Origin: an uncultured Rhodobacteraceae bacterium
GTDB lineage: Bacteria; Pseudomonadota; Alphaproteobacteria; Rhodobacterales; Rhodobacteraceae
Assembly: GCA_947311485.1 (NCBI GenBank)
Contig: CAMZLM010000019.1
Span: 1,303-65,302 of the forward strand
Length of the DNA stretch: 64,000 nucleotides
Reading direction: 5' to 3'
The position numbers and the translations under genes are program-made. Each line of letters begins with the position of its first letter. Within the stretch, counting starts at the first letter, position 1. Below, piece after piece: positions 18,125 through 57,068 of the stretch. The notes below the pieces were generated by a model that searched no databases, had not been told where the DNA came from, and was given only the letters and a program-made list of their open reading frames with translations.

Positions 18125-18271
18125 GTTTTGTTACCTTGTCTTTGCACCTGCAACCAGAATTGCACCCTTGGCCTTGGTTGTCTAAAATACACAGTAGTCA
18201 GGTCTTAGCTATTTTATCCGCTTACGTAAAGCCGCACCACGCCCCCGACGATTCGCCTGTTATTCGCAGGT

Positions 18272-18287
18272 CGCAAAACGGGTGCCA
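18272..18287 (-). promoter_or_regulatory. Sigma54 (-24/-12) promoter upstream of allE-allA
   Basis: Minus strand reads TGGCAC-CCGTT-TTGC, an exact match to TGGCAC-N5-TTGC, oriented toward allE. Confidence 0.75.
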
Positions 18288-18661
18288 CATTTTCGCCATA
18301 TTTTGGTAGCAATTCATGCACAATCCTGCCTCATTGTGAACGACTATTTCTCTCGGCGAAACTATATATGCAAATATACTTATTTTCTTGCATTTTAACT
18401 AATTTGGACCATAACTGCCCGTGTAAGCGTTTAATATCGAGTGTTCCCAAGGAATGGGAAGTGTAAAAAGTAACCTGCGTTTCAGGGACATTTACAGTAT
18501 TTGCTGCCATACAGATTCTGGCGAAGTACGCCGAGCAATGTTCCCTGAACCTAACGCTTCTACAGGTCTGTTGGCGGTGGTTGCAATCCTTGCTGCTATC
18601 TTATTTGTTCAGGCGCATCGCCGCCACCAGACCATAATAAAACGCGGTAATTCCGGCAGCG

Positions 18662-25844: not shown

Positions 25845-26630
25845 ATGCCAGAAGCGATTTGCCAGTCGGAATTACCGATCAAACCATGGCTGGATCCCCG
25901 TTTAAACCGGATGCCCGGGATGATGCCGCTGGATTGGTCAGACTGGATCATCCGTGACGATGCCTTTGACGCACAGATGGCCTATCGCGACCGGTTGTTG
26001 GATCAAAAGCGGGAAGCGGTTTTCGCCTGTCACGCCAGCGCCGATATCGCCGCGCGTGAATTGCTGGCGCGGGTGCTGGCGGTTTTGCGGCAGGATCCAG
26101 AATACGGTTTTGACGGGGGGCAGGTCACACGGCCTGACGGGGTTTGCGTGGACACATCTTCGAATCATCCACTGTGGGCAATCGGACGATTGGCACAAGA
26201 GGATTATTGCATTTTATTATCCGAAAACAGCCAGCAAGTCCTGCGGGGGGCGGTGTTGTGTTTTCCTGCCAGTTGGACCCTGAGCGAAAAAATCAACCGC
26301 GATATGTTTGCCATTCATCAGCCGGTTGACAGCTATGGCACGGAAATGGGCAAACGGGTTGGGCGGATGTTTAACATGATCCGCCCCGACCAACCGCTTT
26401 GGCGGGCCAATAACCTGATCTATTCCAATCCCGACCTGTTCCAGCCACGTATAGAAGGGGAAAAACGGGTGATAGAAACCGGTAAACGCTGGGTGCGGGT
26501 GGAACGCCAAACCGTCATGCGTCTGCCCGAAAGCGGGGCGCTGGTGTTTGGCATCCACACGTTTCAAGTACCACTCGAAACGTTAAAAACCGCAGAAACA
26601 GCGGCGCTTTTGGCGATCAAGACCGGCTAA
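25845..26630 (+). CDS. DUF3445-like protein (heme-dependent oxidative N-demethylase alpha-subunit family)
   Basis: [32 protein letters not shown] motifs. Confidence 0.75.
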
Positions 26631-26664
26631 AACGTTTACCCCCCAAAGGGGCACAAACTGGCCA

Positions 26665-28098
26665 TCAGGTTTCACCGTAATCCTTGGTCCAGTTTTCCCG
26701 CTTGCGGTAGATGGTCGAGGGCGATAGATCCAGATGGCGAGCCGCGCGGGGGACAGACCCCTTGTAGCGTAGCACCGTGGCCTCGATCAATTCACGCTCC
26801 AGATCGGCCATGGTAAGGCCGGATTCAACCAGTTCGCTTACGGCCTTTTCCACGCCATAGCCCCCCGGTTGAATGTCGGCCTCGAACACCGGTATTGCAG
26901 GGCTTTTGGCGGCGGCCATATGGGTTGTCATCGCCGACAGGAATTCCGGGGCCAGCATCGACAATTCAATCGTGTTTCCCTCGTTCAGCACCACAGCGTT
27001 ACGCACAACATTCAGCAGATGCCGAACATTTCCGGGCCAGGGATGAGCGGCAAACACCCGCTTTACATCCCGACTTAAGGCGTTGAATTCACGGCCTTCT
27101 TCTTGTGAAAACTGCCGCATGGAATCTTCGGCCAGCTCAATAACATCCTGCCCCCGTTCCCGCAGGGGCGGCAGATGGATCGGCACCACATGCAGCCGGT
27201 AAAACAAATCCTCGCGAAAACGTCCGGCAGCGACTTCCTTTACCGGATCCCGATTGGTGGCGCAGATAATGCGCACATCCACCTTGCGCGGGGTGACCGC
27301 CCCCACGGGCTGGATGGTGGAAGTCTGCAAAAACCGCAACAGTTTGGTTTGCAATGCCATATCCATTTCACAGATTTCATCCAGAAACAGCGTGCCACCA
27401 TCCGCTGCAGCCGCCGCCCCGACCTTGTCATAGATCGCGCCGGTAAAGGAACCTTTGAGGTGACCGAACACCTCTGACTCGAGCAAATCCCCCGGAATCG
27501 CGCCACAGTTCAACGCAATAAAAGGTCCCGTTGCCCGGTTTGACACCTGATGGATAGCATCCGCACAGAGCTCTTTGCCGGTGCCGCTCTCTCCGGTAAT
27601 AAAAACCGTGGCCGTGGAACGCCCGATGCTGCAAATCTTTTTGTAAACCGATTGCATCACCGCAGAAGAACCGATGAATTTCTGAAACCGGCCCTCTTCG
27701 ATCCCGCGTGGTGCCGGTTGCGCCCCGATTTTAGCCAAATCGGTGAGCGCGTTGCTAACAGAAGACAACAACCGTTGTTCGTCGAACGGTTTCACCAGAA
27801 AATCAAACGCGCCCGCCCGCATCGCAGAGACGGCCCGATTGATCGACCCGTTTGCGGTGATAACGATGACTTTGACCTCCGGTGCTTCCTTCAGGAAATC
27901 GGCCATCAGCTCCAGCCCGTCCCGATCCGGCAACAGCAAATCCAGCAGCACAACCGGATGTTGCTGGCCGGCAAAAATACGCGCGCCCTCGGCGGCGGTA
28001 TTTGCACAATCCACCTCATAACCCGACTTGGTCAGAATTGCTTCGTACACCATCTGCAAGGATGGTGTATCTTCGATCAAGAGTATCGGATCGGACAT
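26665..28098 (-). CDS. Sigma54-dependent response regulator, LuxO-like (REC-AAA+-HTH)
   Basis: LLDLLLPD (phospho-Asp), GESGTGKE, GSFTGA, FLDEICEM, RFREDLFYRL, WPGNVR, SPSTIYRK. Confidence 0.92.
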   Translation of the reverse strand: MSDPILLIEDTPSLQMVYEAILTKSGYEVDCANTAAEGARIFAGQQHPVVLLDLLLPDRDGLELMADFLKEAPEVKVIVITANGSINRAVSAMRAGAFDFLVKPFDEQRLLSSVSNALTDLAKIGAQPAPRGIEEGRFQKFIGSSAVMQSVYKKICSIGRSTATVFITGESGTGKELCADAIHQVSNRATGPFIALNCGAIPGDLLESEVFGHLKGSFTGAIYDKVGAAAAADGGTLFLDEICEMDMALQTKLLRFLQTSTIQPVGAVTPRKVDVRIICATNRDPVKEVAAGRFREDLFYRLHVVPIHLPPLRERGQDVIELAEDSMRQFSQEEGREFNALSRDVKRVFAAHPWPGNVRHLLNVVRNAVVLNEGNTIELSMLAPEFLSAMTTHMAAAKSPAIPVFEADIQPGGYGVEKAVSELVESGLTMADLERELIEATVLRYKGSVPRAARHLDLSPSTIYRKRENWTKDYGET

Positions 28099-29577
28099 TT
28101 AGCCCCCATTAATTTCATTGCGAACAGTTTCCAAATACTCAATCAACTCTCTTAATAGGGGCAAAATAGACCACTCGCTGGACGTTAAGTCAACAGATTC
28201 AGCACACTGCATGGCTGTATTAAGCGACTGGGCCGCCTTAAGCAATTCCAATGCGCCCACTGCCCCCGCCAAAGAGATCAAAATATGACTCGTATTACGC
28301 AATTGTGACGGATCCTTGTCTGCAAATGCCTTCTCGATAGTCGTTTGCGCCCCCGACAAATCAATCAGCAATTTGTCCACCAATCCCCCGAATGCAGCCG
28401 GTCCCATGGTGCGCTCAAGATTGGTATAAATTTCAGAATCCACCGGGCAATTCGTCTTGTCAGCCGGGCCGTCGAAACCACAAAATCCGTTGATCGCCGT
28501 CCCCAATGCCTGAATATCCGTGAGCGGTTTGGCAATCACACCGTTGGCCCCAGCCGCCATGATCCGGCTTTGATGATCCGATAGAAAATACGCCGTCAAC
28601 GCCACCAGCGGCATCCTTGCAAAAGGCAAATTCGAGGCACGGATTTCACGGATCAGATCCACACCGGATTTTCGCGGCATTTCAATGTCCACCAAAGCCA
28701 GATCAAAGGCTTGCTCACACAGAATATCCCACGCTTCTTGCCCATCCTGCGCCAGCGTGACCTCTGCCCCTAAAATTTCCAGCATATGGCCGGCCACCAG
28801 CTGATTGGTTTTATTATCTTCGGCCAGCAAAACCTTCTTACCCTGCAATTGCGGGGTCACGAATTCAGGTTGCTCCAAGGCATCTAATGGCACATCGGTA
28901 TTACGGGTTGGCAACATCACGGTGACGCACCCCCCCGCATTCAGGGCCGGCACCCATACTTCGCCTTGTAGCTGTTTGGTTATTTTGTAGACAATATACA
29001 AACCAAGCCCGGACCCCGGTACAATCGAAGATTCAGGACGCCCCTCAAAGGAAAACAGTTTTTCACGAGCCGCCGCACTAAACCCAGGCCCTTGGTCGCT
29101 AATTCTCAGCTGAAGAAACCCGGAAGCCTCCTGTACATCCAGGGTGACTTCTCCTCCTTTCGGGGAAAATTTAACGGCATTATCCAGTAAATTGGACAAA
29201 ATGCGTTCCAGATCAAGCGGCGTGCAATCAAGACAACATTGTTCCGACACCATGGAATTGACCCGTAATTCCACCCCCACATCCGCAGCCCGCCCTTGCC
29301 AACGTTGGTCAATCTCTTGCAAAAGCGGGGCCACAAAAAGCGGCCCTGCCCCATGGATACCCTGTGGGGGAGATTTTCTTTTCACCACATTCAGCAACCG
29401 TAAGACCATGTTTGCCGCAGCGGCAATCCGCGCCAGTTGAATTTTATTCACCTCGCTCAGGGTTTCATGTTCCATCAACTGAACCCCGCCCACGATATCG
29501 GACACCGCCGAGCGCAGATCATGGCTAAGCATCCTATTCTGCTCCGCTTGCAAAGCAGCATCCGTTTGTTTTTCCAT
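28099..29577 (-). CDS. Cytoplasmic hybrid histidine kinase (HisKA-HATPase-REC-Hpt) with no sensor domain
   Basis: LSHDLRS, NLLDNAVKF, DQGPG, GSGLGL; REC ED..D(IEMP)..T..KP; C-terminal SHILISLAGAVGA Hpt-like helix. GAGG RBS before ATG 29577. Confidence 0.88.
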   Translation of the reverse strand: MEKQTDAALQAEQNRMLSHDLRSAVSDIVGGVQLMEHETLSEVNKIQLARIAAAANMVLRLLNVVKRKSPPQGIHGAGPLFVAPLLQEIDQRWQGRAADVGVELRVNSMVSEQCCLDCTPLDLERILSNLLDNAVKFSPKGGEVTLDVQEASGFLQLRISDQGPGFSAAAREKLFSFEGRPESSIVPGSGLGLYIVYKITKQLQGEVWVPALNAGGCVTVMLPTRNTDVPLDALEQPEFVTPQLQGKKVLLAEDNKTNQLVAGHMLEILGAEVTLAQDGQEAWDILCEQAFDLALVDIEMPRKSGVDLIREIRASNLPFARMPLVALTAYFLSDHQSRIMAAGANGVIAKPLTDIQALGTAINGFCGFDGPADKTNCPVDSEIYTNLERTMGPAAFGGLVDKLLIDLSGAQTTIEKAFADKDPSQLRNTSHILISLAGAVGALELLKAAQSLNTAMQCAESVDLTSSEWSILPLLRELIEYLETVRNEINGG

Positions 29578-29742
29578 ATGGCCTCTTTTTATTTCCCTAC
29601 AGTCCATACGCACACGCAATCGCGCCCACCGATAACCGTCTCCACATCAGCCCAATATGTGTATGCGCAACAGGATACTCATCTTTATTCAGGACTTAAA
29701 GCACTTACTTTACTCTCACGACCTTGCCTCCGCACTCACACC

Positions 29743-29758
29743 CGCAAAACGGGTGCCA
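29743..29758 (-). promoter_or_regulatory. Sigma54 (-24/-12) promoter upstream of the hybrid kinase/LuxO-like genes
   Basis: Minus strand TGGCAC-CCGTT-TTGC immediately after the stop codon of the 29761-31398 gene. Confidence 0.75.
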
Positions 29759-29760
29759 TC

Positions 29761-31398
29761 CTAGAGAAAAGGTGCCACCTTTAGCGCAGTAATATCAATC
29801 GGCAGACTAATTTGTCCCTCATATCGGGATTTGTCCGAAGGGGCCCCAAGTGCCACAAAATTTGCCTCCGGATACAGCGCGACAAGCCGCTCATAGGTTT
29901 GATGTTCAAATGTCCCCCCGGCCTCAATAATCACCGTATGCACCGGATCTGTATCATCGGGTTGAAACATTCGCACCGGAAACGAGGCCATCGCATTTTG
30001 GCAAATTGCCGCGAGCGCCTGCGAGCGGGTCTCAAGACGCACAGTAATCGTATCGGTTTCCAGAGCCACCAGCGGCACATTAACGTGGACAGCTGCCTGA
30101 CCTTGCCCGGTTGTGACACTTTGATGGCTCAGAGAGCCGTTCATACGGTTGATGAACCCACAAGCGATTTCAGTTCCCAGCTCGCTTTTGGCAAAACGAT
30201 CATCGCTGCCCTGTTGATTTACATTGATAAAATGGGGCAACCAGCCATCACCCAGATCCGTTTGATCATAATAAAGGCTAACTCCCAATTTCCCGTCGTG
30301 ATAACCAATGAACACCCGCACATCCCGGCGGCTCATAATCGCCAAATAACGCGCCATATGCACCAGTGTTTGGCGCAACCGCAACAAATCCCCCCGCATC
30401 CGGAGCGGACATTCAGGCGCGCATTCCACCTGAAAATTCACACTTTCCGCTTGCCCAACCGACCTCAGCGCTTTGTCAATCTGCGCACAGAGGACCCTGA
30501 TCAGGAAGGGTTTATTCAGCAAATCCACATTCGCGGTTTCCAGATCGGCAAACTCCACAATATCCAACAACATTTCGTTAAGCTGTTGGCTCGATTTCTC
30601 AGCAATGCTCAGCATTTCCGCCTGTTGCGGGCTCCCGCCCTGTTGTCTGGCCAGCGCAATCATTCCCGAAATACCGTTCATTGGCGTGCGCAGCTCATGG
30701 CTCATCATATTTAGAAATGCCGATTTGGTACGGTTAGCCTGCTGCGCCTGCCGGAACAACGCGGCATTTTTCTGGCTCATTTTCCGGTGTAAACGGGTTT
30801 CATAAGCAAAATACATCAACAACAAGAATGAAAATACCGCCGCTCCGTTTCCCAGTCGAAACAATAATGCCTGATTGGCAACCAACCCTCGCCGCAACTC
30901 AGCACCGGCCTCGACCTCGCCATGCATAACAATCCGGTTAAACCTGCGAAACTGATCCTCATAAGCCTTGAAATCCCGCCATAATGCCAACGCCGCCGCG
31001 CGATCCCCGTCTTGGAGTGCCTCGATCGTTGGCTCTGCCTGTTTCAAACTTTCAAAAATGCGTTCGACATAACCCTCCGCCCCGTTAAACCCTTCGATTC
31101 TCTGCGCAGTTTTTGTGTGCTGGAACAAAGCGACCCTGCTCCACAAAATATTAAACCGGCGATTGACCTCACCACGATCAACCCCGACCTGCCCGCCCGC
31201 CATACCGAGTAACGTTTCCAAAAACCGCTGATATTCAATATTCAACTGCGATGATGACCACAAAAGGTTTTCTTGCCAATTGATACGAATACTTTCAATA
31301 TTATTGCGAACCGCGCCAAAGGTGAAAAACGCAGTAACAATGGTCACAAGAACCGTAGAAAACCCTAAAAATCTAAGTGCCCCCCCCCAGTTTTTCAC
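29761..31398 (-). CDS. Membrane sensor with DcpA-like periplasmic domain, intact HisKA and degenerate HATPase (probable pseudokinase)
   Basis: Two TM segments, W47-X7-E55, RFNILWSR; SHELRTP present; N, G1 and G2 boxes eroded. Confidence 0.8.
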   Translation of the reverse strand: MKNWGGALRFLGFSTVLVTIVTAFFTFGAVRNNIESIRINWQENLLWSSSQLNIEYQRFLETLLGMAGGQVGVDRGEVNRRFNILWSRVALFQHTKTAQRIEGFNGAEGYVERIFESLKQAEPTIEALQDGDRAAALALWRDFKAYEDQFRRFNRIVMHGEVEAGAELRRGLVANQALLFRLGNGAAVFSFLLLMYFAYETRLHRKMSQKNAALFRQAQQANRTKSAFLNMMSHELRTPMNGISGMIALARQQGGSPQQAEMLSIAEKSSQQLNEMLLDIVEFADLETANVDLLNKPFLIRVLCAQIDKALRSVGQAESVNFQVECAPECPLRMRGDLLRLRQTLVHMARYLAIMSRRDVRVFIGYHDGKLGVSLYYDQTDLGDGWLPHFINVNQQGSDDRFAKSELGTEIACGFINRMNGSLSHQSVTTGQGQAAVHVNVPLVALETDTITVRLETRSQALAAICQNAMASFPVRMFQPDDTDPVHTVIIEAGGTFEHQTYERLVALYPEANFVALGAPSDKSRYEGQISLPIDITALKVAPFL

Positions 31399-31880
31399 TT
31401 GAACACAATCCGGGTGAGCTGCCAGATCAGACGGCCGTTGTATTTTGGATCTTGTAGTTTTTTATGACTACTCATCGGGTAAATCACCCAGATCGGTCCC
31501 TTACCACGCGGCGAAAATGCCTCACCATCCACGGAAAGCGCCAAAATCACATCATAGGCAAAAAACTCGTGCATTGGGATTTCAACCGTATAGTCATTTT
31601 CCGCAACCATATAACCAAGGCTCAAGTCTTCAGCCCCAAACTGTGTAACCAAGTCTCGAAGCAGTGGTCCTTCAAAGGTTTTCATGCCATCCACATAGGC
31701 ATTTTCTGTTTTTATCTGATGCAAACCCATTGCATGTAATTGATCTGCATCAAAAGTCACACTAGAGGTGACTTTTCCGTCGCGCTCAACTTGAACCGTC
31801 AAAATTTCTTGGGCGCTCGCGACACTTACAAAGAAAGTCGCCAAAATAGCAGCCACAAACATACGAATAAAACACCCCAC
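31395..31880 (-). CDS. Periplasmic SUOX/molybdopterin-binding-fold protein, PruR-like
   Basis: Signal peptide (ASA|QE), FEGPLLRDL, ENDY.VEIP, YDVILA, RGKGPIWVIYP, WQL; no Cys in the mature part. Confidence 0.75.
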   Translation of the reverse strand: MGCFIRMFVAAILATFFVSVASAQEILTVQVERDGKVTSSVTFDADQLHAMGLHQIKTENAYVDGMKTFEGPLLRDLVTQFGAEDLSLGYMVAENDYTVEIPMHEFFAYDVILALSVDGEAFSPRGKGPIWVIYPMSSHKKLQDPKYNGRLIWQLTRIVFK

Positions 31881-32063
31881 GCTTCCACCTCCGATAGCAC
31901 TTACTACCTAAGATATTGAAAAATAATATGCTATCTAGCACATTATTCCCAATTTCCCTTTCTTTTGGCATTAAATGCACCAGATTCGCGAATTGCGACT
32001 CAATTCGCAATTCTTGCGTGCGCATTGGGCAATCTATCAAACTATAGGCCTGCCCAATAAACC

Positions 32064-56895: not shown

Positions 56896-56990
56896 ACAAC
56901 TCATATCCGCAAAAGATGAGCATTGGCTCCGCGCTTGCAAGTAATGTTTCACATTAGAGTCAGGACCGGCAGCACGCCTTTTGTTTGATT

Positions 56991-57068
56991 TTCGAATTCG
57001 TAAAAAATATCCCCGCCGGAGGCACAAAACTTTTATGCCTCCGGCGGGGATATTTAGACGAATTCGAA
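56991..57068. repeat. 78-bp inverted repeat between convergent sdaA and sdhB
   Basis: AAATATCCCCGCCGGAGGCA (57005-24) and TGCCTCCGGCGGGGATATTT (57036-55) form a perfect 20-bp stem, extended by TTCGAATTCGT/ACGAATTCGAA. Confidence 0.85.

Follow-up and report, generated by a model that had tools for sequence, protein, structure and literature searches.

Within a signalling operon of an uncultured Rhodobacteraceae bacterium, a sequence resembling a consensus sigma-54 promoter lies upstream of the gene for a sigma-54 activator. This arrangement raises the question of whether the sequence is a working promoter and, if so, whether the activator might drive its own expression through it, as a first-pass annotation of the locus had proposed. 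We addressed this question in the whole stretch of 64,000 nucleotides in which the operon lies (hereafter, the window) and in related loci.

Position and match quality of the sigma-54-like motif

The motif was confirmed on the minus strand, where a match to the sigma-54 -24/-12 elements, the 15-mer TGGCACCCGTTTTGC, occupies positions 29744 to 29758; with a trailing G, it forms the promoter-like 16-mer TGGCACCCGTTTTGCG at positions 29743 to 29758. Reading along the minus strand (...ctcTAGgaTGGCACCCGTTTTGCGggtg...), the end of the sensor gene (CTC TAG ga) is followed by TGGCACCCGTTTTGC and then by ggg. The GG doublet is placed at 29757/29756 and the GC doublet at 29745/29744, and thus the GG-N10-GC spacing is exact. 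The TAG codon of the 545-residue sensor open reading frame spans positions 29763 to 29761, and the motif starts 2 nt past it, so that its first base is the third one beyond the stop, in agreement with the earlier description of a start 3 nt after the stop. Also as described there, the motif faces the genes for the hybrid kinase (ATG at 29577) and the LuxO-like protein. It is co-oriented with the kinase gene, 155 nt upstream of its ATG, and is harbored by the 185-nt spacer between the sensor and kinase genes. By standard -12 numbering, the predicted +1 would fall near 29732, giving a leader of 155 nt.

The exact core, TGGCAC-N5-TTGC, occurs twice in the 64-kb window, against 0.28 occurrences expected, and a count of 2 was reached in 4 of 100 shuffles. 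Both exact copies are intergenic, and each points at the genes downstream of it. When one mismatch was allowed, 10 sites were found in the window against 8.6 expected, i.e., the background level. The extended sigma-54 consensus has been described as YTGGCACG-N4-TTGCW (PMC3352281, citing Barrios 1999). Compared with TGGCACG-N4-TTGCW, the motif matches at 10 of 12 positions, with C replacing the G that follows TGGCAC and G replacing the W that follows TTGC. In 718 kb of control DNA, the frequency of sites with at least 10 of 12 matches was 0.054 per kb per strand, and eight of them were found in the window. Given the exact-core counts, on the one hand, and the background frequency of the 10/12 class, on the other, the core match is perfect and rare, whereas the extended match, although good, is unexceptional. 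Moreover, sigma-54 binding sites outnumber sigma-54-dependent transcripts in other bacteria (PMC3844500), and therefore a good match is not proof of function.

Other sites of the 10/12 class were also observed. One of them, TGGCCCCGCTTTTGCA, lies in the interior of the kinase gene (29318 to 29333, minus strand); it resembles the gene 1 promoters of related operons described below and is not conserved in the relatives L012 to L014. Another, TGGCTCCGCGCTTGCA (56924 to 56939, plus strand), lies between the convergent genes for a serine dehydratase and an SdhB-like protein (succinate dehydrogenase Fe-S subunit). A very strong hairpin is found at approximately 57003 to 57050, about 70 nt past TGGCTCCGCGCTTGCA, and no LuxO-type boxes were seen upstream of that motif. 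The motif and the hairpin could be a chance match next to a bidirectional terminator, or they could specify a short sigma-54-driven RNA.

As to the genes around the motif, the earlier labels of LuxO-like protein, hybrid kinase, and pseudokinase were borne out by domain, family-model, and PDB matches. The operon is composed of four genes on the minus strand. Gene 1 (31395 to 31880) encodes a 161-residue protein with a hydrophobic, signal-peptide-like N terminus and a weak Oxidored_molyb-like domain, and its product is likely periplasmic. The second gene (29761 to 31398) encodes the 545-residue membrane sensor, the so-called pseudokinase, which has a HisKA domain with the H-box SHELRTP kept and partial matches to TorS, BarA, and LuxQ; PF00512 was its only domain match, and a HATPase domain was not detected in it. 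The first gene downstream of the motif (28099 to 29577) encodes a soluble hybrid histidine kinase with weak HisKA, HATPase, REC, and Hpt domains. The two genes present a split-kinase layout, in which the sensor carries HisKA and the H-box histidine with no recognizable ATPase, and the next gene carries a weak HisKA, an intact ATPase, REC, and Hpt. The ATG of the kinase gene at 29577 aligns with the start codons of its orthologues. The database call for this protein (P0001, 477 residues) begins 15 codons downstream of that ATG (29533 to 29577); the 29577 start is favored by the orthologue start codons together with an AGAGG ribosome-binding site.

The last gene (26665 to 28098) encodes the LuxO-like sigma-54 activator, with a REC domain, an AAA+ domain containing GSFTGA, and a Fis-type helix-turn-helix. 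Its top NCBIfam model is LuxO, with a score of 537 bits that lies under the 800-bit equivalog cut-off (the NtrC model gives 399 bits), and its top PDB match is LuxO 5EP0. The GSFTGA loop, which contacts sigma-54, is retained in 33 of 46 related loci. RpoN is patchily distributed among Rhodobacterales (PMC11999139). Neither in the window nor in the fetched loci was an open reading frame with an RpoN box found, and rpoN was never seen beside the operon; we infer that sigma-54 is present in this organism because the activator is intact and its GSFTGA loop is conserved. A kinase-based scan of the genome contigs revealed distant paralogues only and no orthologous locus. None of the reads from three RNA-seq runs labeled as this organism mapped to positions 26500 to 32000, and no RNA run holding the locus was found. 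DNA contigs from four runs have an identical spacer, and hence strain comparison carries no information on the motif.

Recurrence of the 16-mer and conservation of the spacer

The strongest internal argument for a functional sequence is the recurrence of all 16 nt. The second copy of TGGCACCCGTTTTGCG is found at positions 18272 to 18287 on the minus strand, in intergenic DNA 147 nt upstream of the genes for ureidoglycine aminohydrolase and ureidoglycolate lyase, which belong to allantoin catabolism. The flanks of the two copies share 15 of 60 and 19 of 60 identities, and their local alignment was no better than that of shuffled flanks. Therefore, the sameness is confined to the sigma-54 footprint, which argues against chance and against duplication of a mobile piece and favors a common recognition sequence. 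A mobile or dispersed repeat was rejected directly: the flanks are unrelated, copies with at most three mismatches are not found beyond chance, and none occurs in 99 fetched loci. A shared enhancer for the two copies was also considered and rejected, since no upstream motif is common to both and their upstream k-mer similarity is not above that of shuffles. As a separate observation on repeats in the window, the coding region at approximately 1400 to 2600 has a tandem periodicity of 69 nt (23 residues) with YEG...GKG units, and its product may be a MORN-repeat protein.

The recurrence argument is weakened, however, because the second copy is lineage specific too. In L096, whose enzyme is 89% identical, conserved blocks are present on both sides, and the 16-mer between them is replaced by unrelated bases. 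A good sigma-54 motif is also lacking at the corresponding region in L097 to L099. Thus, the second copy failed as a positive control for conservation, the motif being absent in L096 to L099. The second copy lies in an intergenic region of 537 nt (18125 to 18661), unusually long, which runs from the allantoinase PuuE gene to the ureidoglycine aminohydrolase gene; this region contains several blocks conserved with L096 and gave no Rfam match. The -12 end of the second copy overlaps a LuxO-box-like sequence, TTGCGACCTGCGA (11.0 bits).

Conservation in orthologous loci, which had been put forward as a check on the promoter, was not observed for the motif under study. The four-gene order is common to the closest relatives, L012 to L015, whose kinases are approximately 65% identical in amino acid sequence, and their sensor-kinase spacers are long too (199 to 213 nt). 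At the aligned position, the motif is absent from these four loci, and the sequence that follows the stop codon is unrelated and has no sigma-54 motif there. Nor were strong sigma-54 motifs enriched upstream of the kinase gene across approximately 55 metagenomic loci. In L012, the spacer has a 10/12 motif of another sequence, TGGCAAGTTTATTGCC, placed 69 nt ahead of the ATG, and L013 has a broken version of it. A motif with at least 10 of 12 matches is thereby present in the approximately 200-nt spacer in two of the four lineages of the window's clade, for which P is about 7e-4 at the measured background, a post hoc value; this suggests turnover of internal promoters in the spacer.

Within the spacer, all close relatives share a single conserved stretch, the block AAGTGCTTTAAGTCC...GAGTATCCTG (29671 to 29706, minus strand), which lies downstream of the predicted +1 and follows the pattern AAGTGCTTTAA(C/G)TCC...GA(C/G)TATC. 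This block may serve as a leader element or as a promoter of the sigma-70 type (TTTAAG-N16-GTATCC), and it could be the real conserved promoter of the kinase genes. It was not called in a consensus promoter scan.

The lack of conservation brings forward the main rival explanation, namely, that the motif is an orphan or nonproductive sigma-54-like site, recently arisen by drift, which may bind the holoenzyme with no activator placed to fire it. Expression of the kinase and LuxO-like genes would then depend on read-through from the promoter of gene 1 or on a conserved promoter inside the spacer, for which the block at 29671 to 29706 is a candidate. The absence of the motif from all close orthologues, the similar behavior of the second copy, the background frequency of the 10/12 class, and the lack of a proximal enhancer, described below, are consistent with such a site. 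Nevertheless, a perfect, co-oriented core in an intergenic spacer is expected far less than once per window, and its 16-nt identity to a second intergenic site with unrelated flanks would be very unlikely without selection. Another lineage (L012) also has a motif of its own in the same spacer. We consider an orphan site possible, if somewhat unlikely.

The motif also overlaps a stem-loop, GCACCCGU-UUU-GCGGGUGU (29738 to 29756, minus strand), with a folding energy of -13.4 kcal/mol (z -3.0) that was equaled in 0 of 200 shuffles. This hairpin begins 4 nt past the sensor stop codon, and its 3' arm reaches past the shared 16-mer. The hairpin, as RNA or as DNA, might itself be the relevant feature, either by protecting the upstream transcript at its 3' end or by partly terminating or attenuating read-through into the kinase genes. 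An intrinsic (Rho-independent) terminator was rejected, given that no U-tract or T-run follows the hairpin and that a terminator scan returned 0 terminator-like sites. By inspection, none of L012 to L015 has a comparable hairpin after the stop codon, and the whole spacer folds no better than shuffles (z -1.0). Moreover, no hairpin is formed at the second copy, and therefore folding does not explain the shared 16-mer. Overall, this explanation is improbable in our view and trails the orphan site as a rival. No Rfam family was found in the window or in the spacer.

A further trailing explanation is that the motif belongs to the site of another protein and that its likeness to sigma-54 promoters is incidental. 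Such a site might consist of the inverted repeat CACCCG-N5-CGGGTG or of the palindrome AAAGGTGGCACCTTT beside it, or it might be a degenerate box of the LuxO type, with CGCAAAACGGGTG as the reverse complement. Three copies of TGGCAC occur on the same strand within 97 nt (P of about 0.03 for the whole window), and one of them is part of AAAGGTGGCACCTTT, a perfect 7-1-7 palindrome at 29768 to 29782 (minus strand), at the end of the sensor gene and 18 nt upstream of the -24 element. In addition, the reverse complement of the 16-mer fits the TYGCAAAAYGCRA pattern with two mismatches. However, the LuxO-box matrix gives the motif -1.8 bits, the TGGCAC copy at 29850 to 29855 is part of a coding segment for conserved Val-Ala-Leu, and neither the palindrome nor the inverted repeat is present at the second copy or in the orthologues. 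Taken together, a site for another protein seems extremely unlikely.

LuxO-type boxes and candidate activator sites

In related operons, sigma-54 motifs are found in front of the first gene. In approximately 10 related loci, LuxO-type boxes are followed by a sigma-54 promoter, and both stand upstream of gene 1; the motif lies 28 to 63 nt before gene 1 in L025, L031, L032, L037, L040, L045, L047, L054, and L056 and approximately 107 nt before it in L041. Five of these relatives (L025, L037, L045, L047, and L054) have motifs with at least 11 of 12 matches, 28 to 47 nt upstream of gene 1, against a background of 0.0098 per kb for this class; in L025, the motif overlaps the mechanically called start of gene 1. 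The sequences of these promoters are TGGCCCGAATTTTGCA in L037, L045, and L054, TGGCCCGAATATTGCA in L047, and TGGCGCGTTACTTGCA in L025, and weaker motifs are present in L031, L032, L040, L041, and L056. Each motif is preceded by one to four TTGCAAAAYGCGAA-like boxes, and the promoter lies approximately 75 to 105 nt downstream of the boxes in L025, L031, L032, L037, L041, L045, L047, and L054.

These boxes resemble the binding sites of Vibrio LuxO. Across loci, the strict pattern T[TC]GC[AG]-N3-[TC]GC[AG]A reaches 1.5 per kb upstream of gene 1 against 0.09 per kb, a 16-fold enrichment. The boxes TTGCAAAATGCGA and TCGCAAAACGCAA of the operon family, as well as TCGCAATTCGCGA of the window, fit the Vibrio LuxO site TTGCA-N3-TGCAA (PMC3352281) and the LuxO sites identified by ChIP-seq in V. 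cholerae, e.g., ttgcaaatcgcga (PMC10328515). Because boxes and sigma-54 motifs stand together before gene 1 in the relatives, control of this operon type by sigma-54 and a LuxO-type activator is, at the level of sequence comparison, a well-supported family trait. The operon family appears to be uncharacterized and autoregulated.

The window has its own LuxO-type boxes, in tandem (TTGCGAATTGAGT and TCGCAATTCGCGA; 31986 to 32010, minus strand), which precede gene 1 by approximately 118 nt and the motif by 2.2 kb. With a box matrix built from the relatives only, the top match of the 64 kb was found here, at 31983 to 32001 (18.4 bits), with an overlapping second match at 31995 to 32013 (12.3 bits). 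The tandem boxes are conserved in L012 (2543 to 2573), L013 (2550 to 2580), and L014 (2535 to 2565), with the pattern TTGCGAATTGnnnyGCAATTCGCGAA. A canonical sigma-54 promoter was not found next to these boxes: the window contains only TGGTGCATTTAATGCC (7 of 12 matches), 3 nt past the box, and L012 to L014 contain none.

Closer to the motif, the first-pass annotation had suggested that any enhancer would lie within the 3' end of the pseudokinase gene, where we found LuxO-type boxes at background level only. One weak LuxO-box-like sequence, GGCAATTTGCCAAAATGCGA (29988 to 30010, minus strand), has a 4-nt spacer and lies approximately 235 to 250 nt upstream of the -24 element; its portion at 29988 to 30006 scores 9.9 bits with the matrix from the relatives. 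It overlaps the palindrome GGCAATTTGCC, which had been reported earlier and does exist, although its true position, 30000 to 30010, is one base off the one first given. A second weak box-like sequence, TTGCCAAAAGCGA (30179 to 30197, minus strand; 10.7 bits), lies in the sensor gene at about -425. Sites of at least 10 bits number 20 in the window, and therefore the boxes near the motif are background. No activator site was found in the usual interval of -70 to -200 from the motif, and the strict TTGCA-N3-TGCAA pattern, with at most one mismatch, had no match upstream of the motif. Another sequence of the sensor gene, ATTTGCCAAAATGCG, is codon-invariant in four species and ranks among the two longest runs of invariant codons; synonymous-site conservation was rejected as a signal here, given that approximately 1.4 such runs are expected by chance. 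In the interior of the kinase gene, a 15.9-bit LuxO-type box, TTGCCTTTTGCAA, was observed at 28614 to 28632 and is not conserved in L012 to L014.

A possible internal promoter and feedback loop

The explanation that we favor, with confidence about evenly balanced between yes and no, is that the motif serves the hybrid kinase and LuxO-like genes as an internal sigma-54 promoter specific to this lineage; in kind, this promoter is probably ordinary and particular to the species. The 15-mer would be recognized by RNA polymerase carrying sigma-54, and transcription from near 29732 would allow the kinase and the LuxO-like activator to be transcribed apart from the two upstream sensor genes. Both this start and the identity of the driving activator are inferred. 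Sigma-54 promoters require an ATP-dependent activator, and the most economical candidate would be the LuxO-like protein itself, which would create a positive feedback loop. There is no strong box near the motif, and therefore the activator, if the motif fires, would have to work from a distance of 2.2 kb, from weak sites, or from solution. For the LuxO-like protein, the distant sites would be the conserved tandem boxes, and the weak ones would be those of the flanking genes; NtrC-type enhancers can act remotely. Input from NtrC, which had been offered as an alternative, is doubtful because NtrC of Rhodobacter capsulatus, also a member of the Rhodobacterales, activates sigma-70-type promoters. 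Overall, the proposed feedback loop was upheld in part: the co-oriented core match, its recurrence, and the family-level control by sigma-54 speak for it, and the lack of conservation and the distance of 2.2 kb to the strong boxes speak against it. Feedback through the LuxO-like activator is plausible and unproven.

A more far-reaching variant is that, in this Paracoccaceae lineage, the sigma-54 promoter was relocated from behind the LuxO boxes, in front of gene 1, to the spacer, so that only the kinase and the activator are under feedback, and that the same 16-nt promoter was recruited before the allantoin genes. The tandem boxes would then serve as a remote enhancer, 2.2 kb away, or as a site of autorepression. 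We regard this relocation as quite unlikely; if true, it would tie the use of purine nitrogen to a LuxO-like pathway outside vibrios.

Comparison with known systems helps to place the proposed internal promoter. In the enteric glnALG operon, the sigma-54 promoter glnAp2 precedes the operon of its own activator, NtrC, and provides positive autoregulation. The NtrC enhancer sites lie approximately 110 to 140 bp upstream of glnAp2 and are conserved, and they also work when moved far from the promoter. The logic proposed here is similar, as the activator gene lies downstream of the sigma-54 promoter that it would activate; unlike glnAp2, the motif has no detectable proximal sites, and it is not conserved.

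The Vibrio LuxO/qrr system is similar in that the activator of the window is most similar to LuxO by NCBIfam and PDB matches and, judging from the domains encoded beside it, would be fed by a phosphorelay of hybrid kinase and Hpt. In contrast to that system, the activator scores 537 bits against the 800-bit equivalog cut-off, the Hpt domain is fused to the kinase and does not form a separate protein like LuxU, an ATPase domain is missing from the sensor, and Rfam detected no Qrr-like small RNA here. Furthermore, the sigma-54 promoter of the relatives drives the operon itself and not a small RNA, and the boxes and the consensus motif of the window are 2.2 kb apart. The motif also resembles the orphan and intragenic sigma-54 sites of Salmonella, E. 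coli, and V. cholerae, which are good matches with no identifiable enhancer (PMC3844500). Those sites lie in atypical positions, whereas the motif is intergenic, co-oriented, and next to an activator gene, which is the typical position of a working promoter. Finally, a sigma-54 module has been described in the same order, RpoN3/AprX-xrpA of Cereibacter sphaeroides and other Rhodobacterales, in which AprX is a REC-domain activator whose presence covaries with the sigma-54 promoter (PMC11999139). AprX has no nearby kinase gene and controls a separate Xre-family gene, whereas the activator described here belongs to a four-gene operon with LuxO-type boxes.

If active, the motif would uncouple the expression of the kinase and the activator from that of the sensor genes, and a LuxO-like regulator would come under sigma-54 control, from which positive feedback could arise in a simple way. 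As a prediction, the promoter is routine biology at the level of annotation, and the more interesting by-product of this analysis is the operon family. Its operons, which are common in marine Paracoccaceae, encode a small periplasmic protein, a sensor that lacks the ATPase domain, a hybrid kinase that includes Hpt, and a LuxO-like activator. With Vibrio-type LuxO boxes and often a canonical sigma-54 promoter, this family may offer a testable handle on a LuxO-type pathway outside vibrios.
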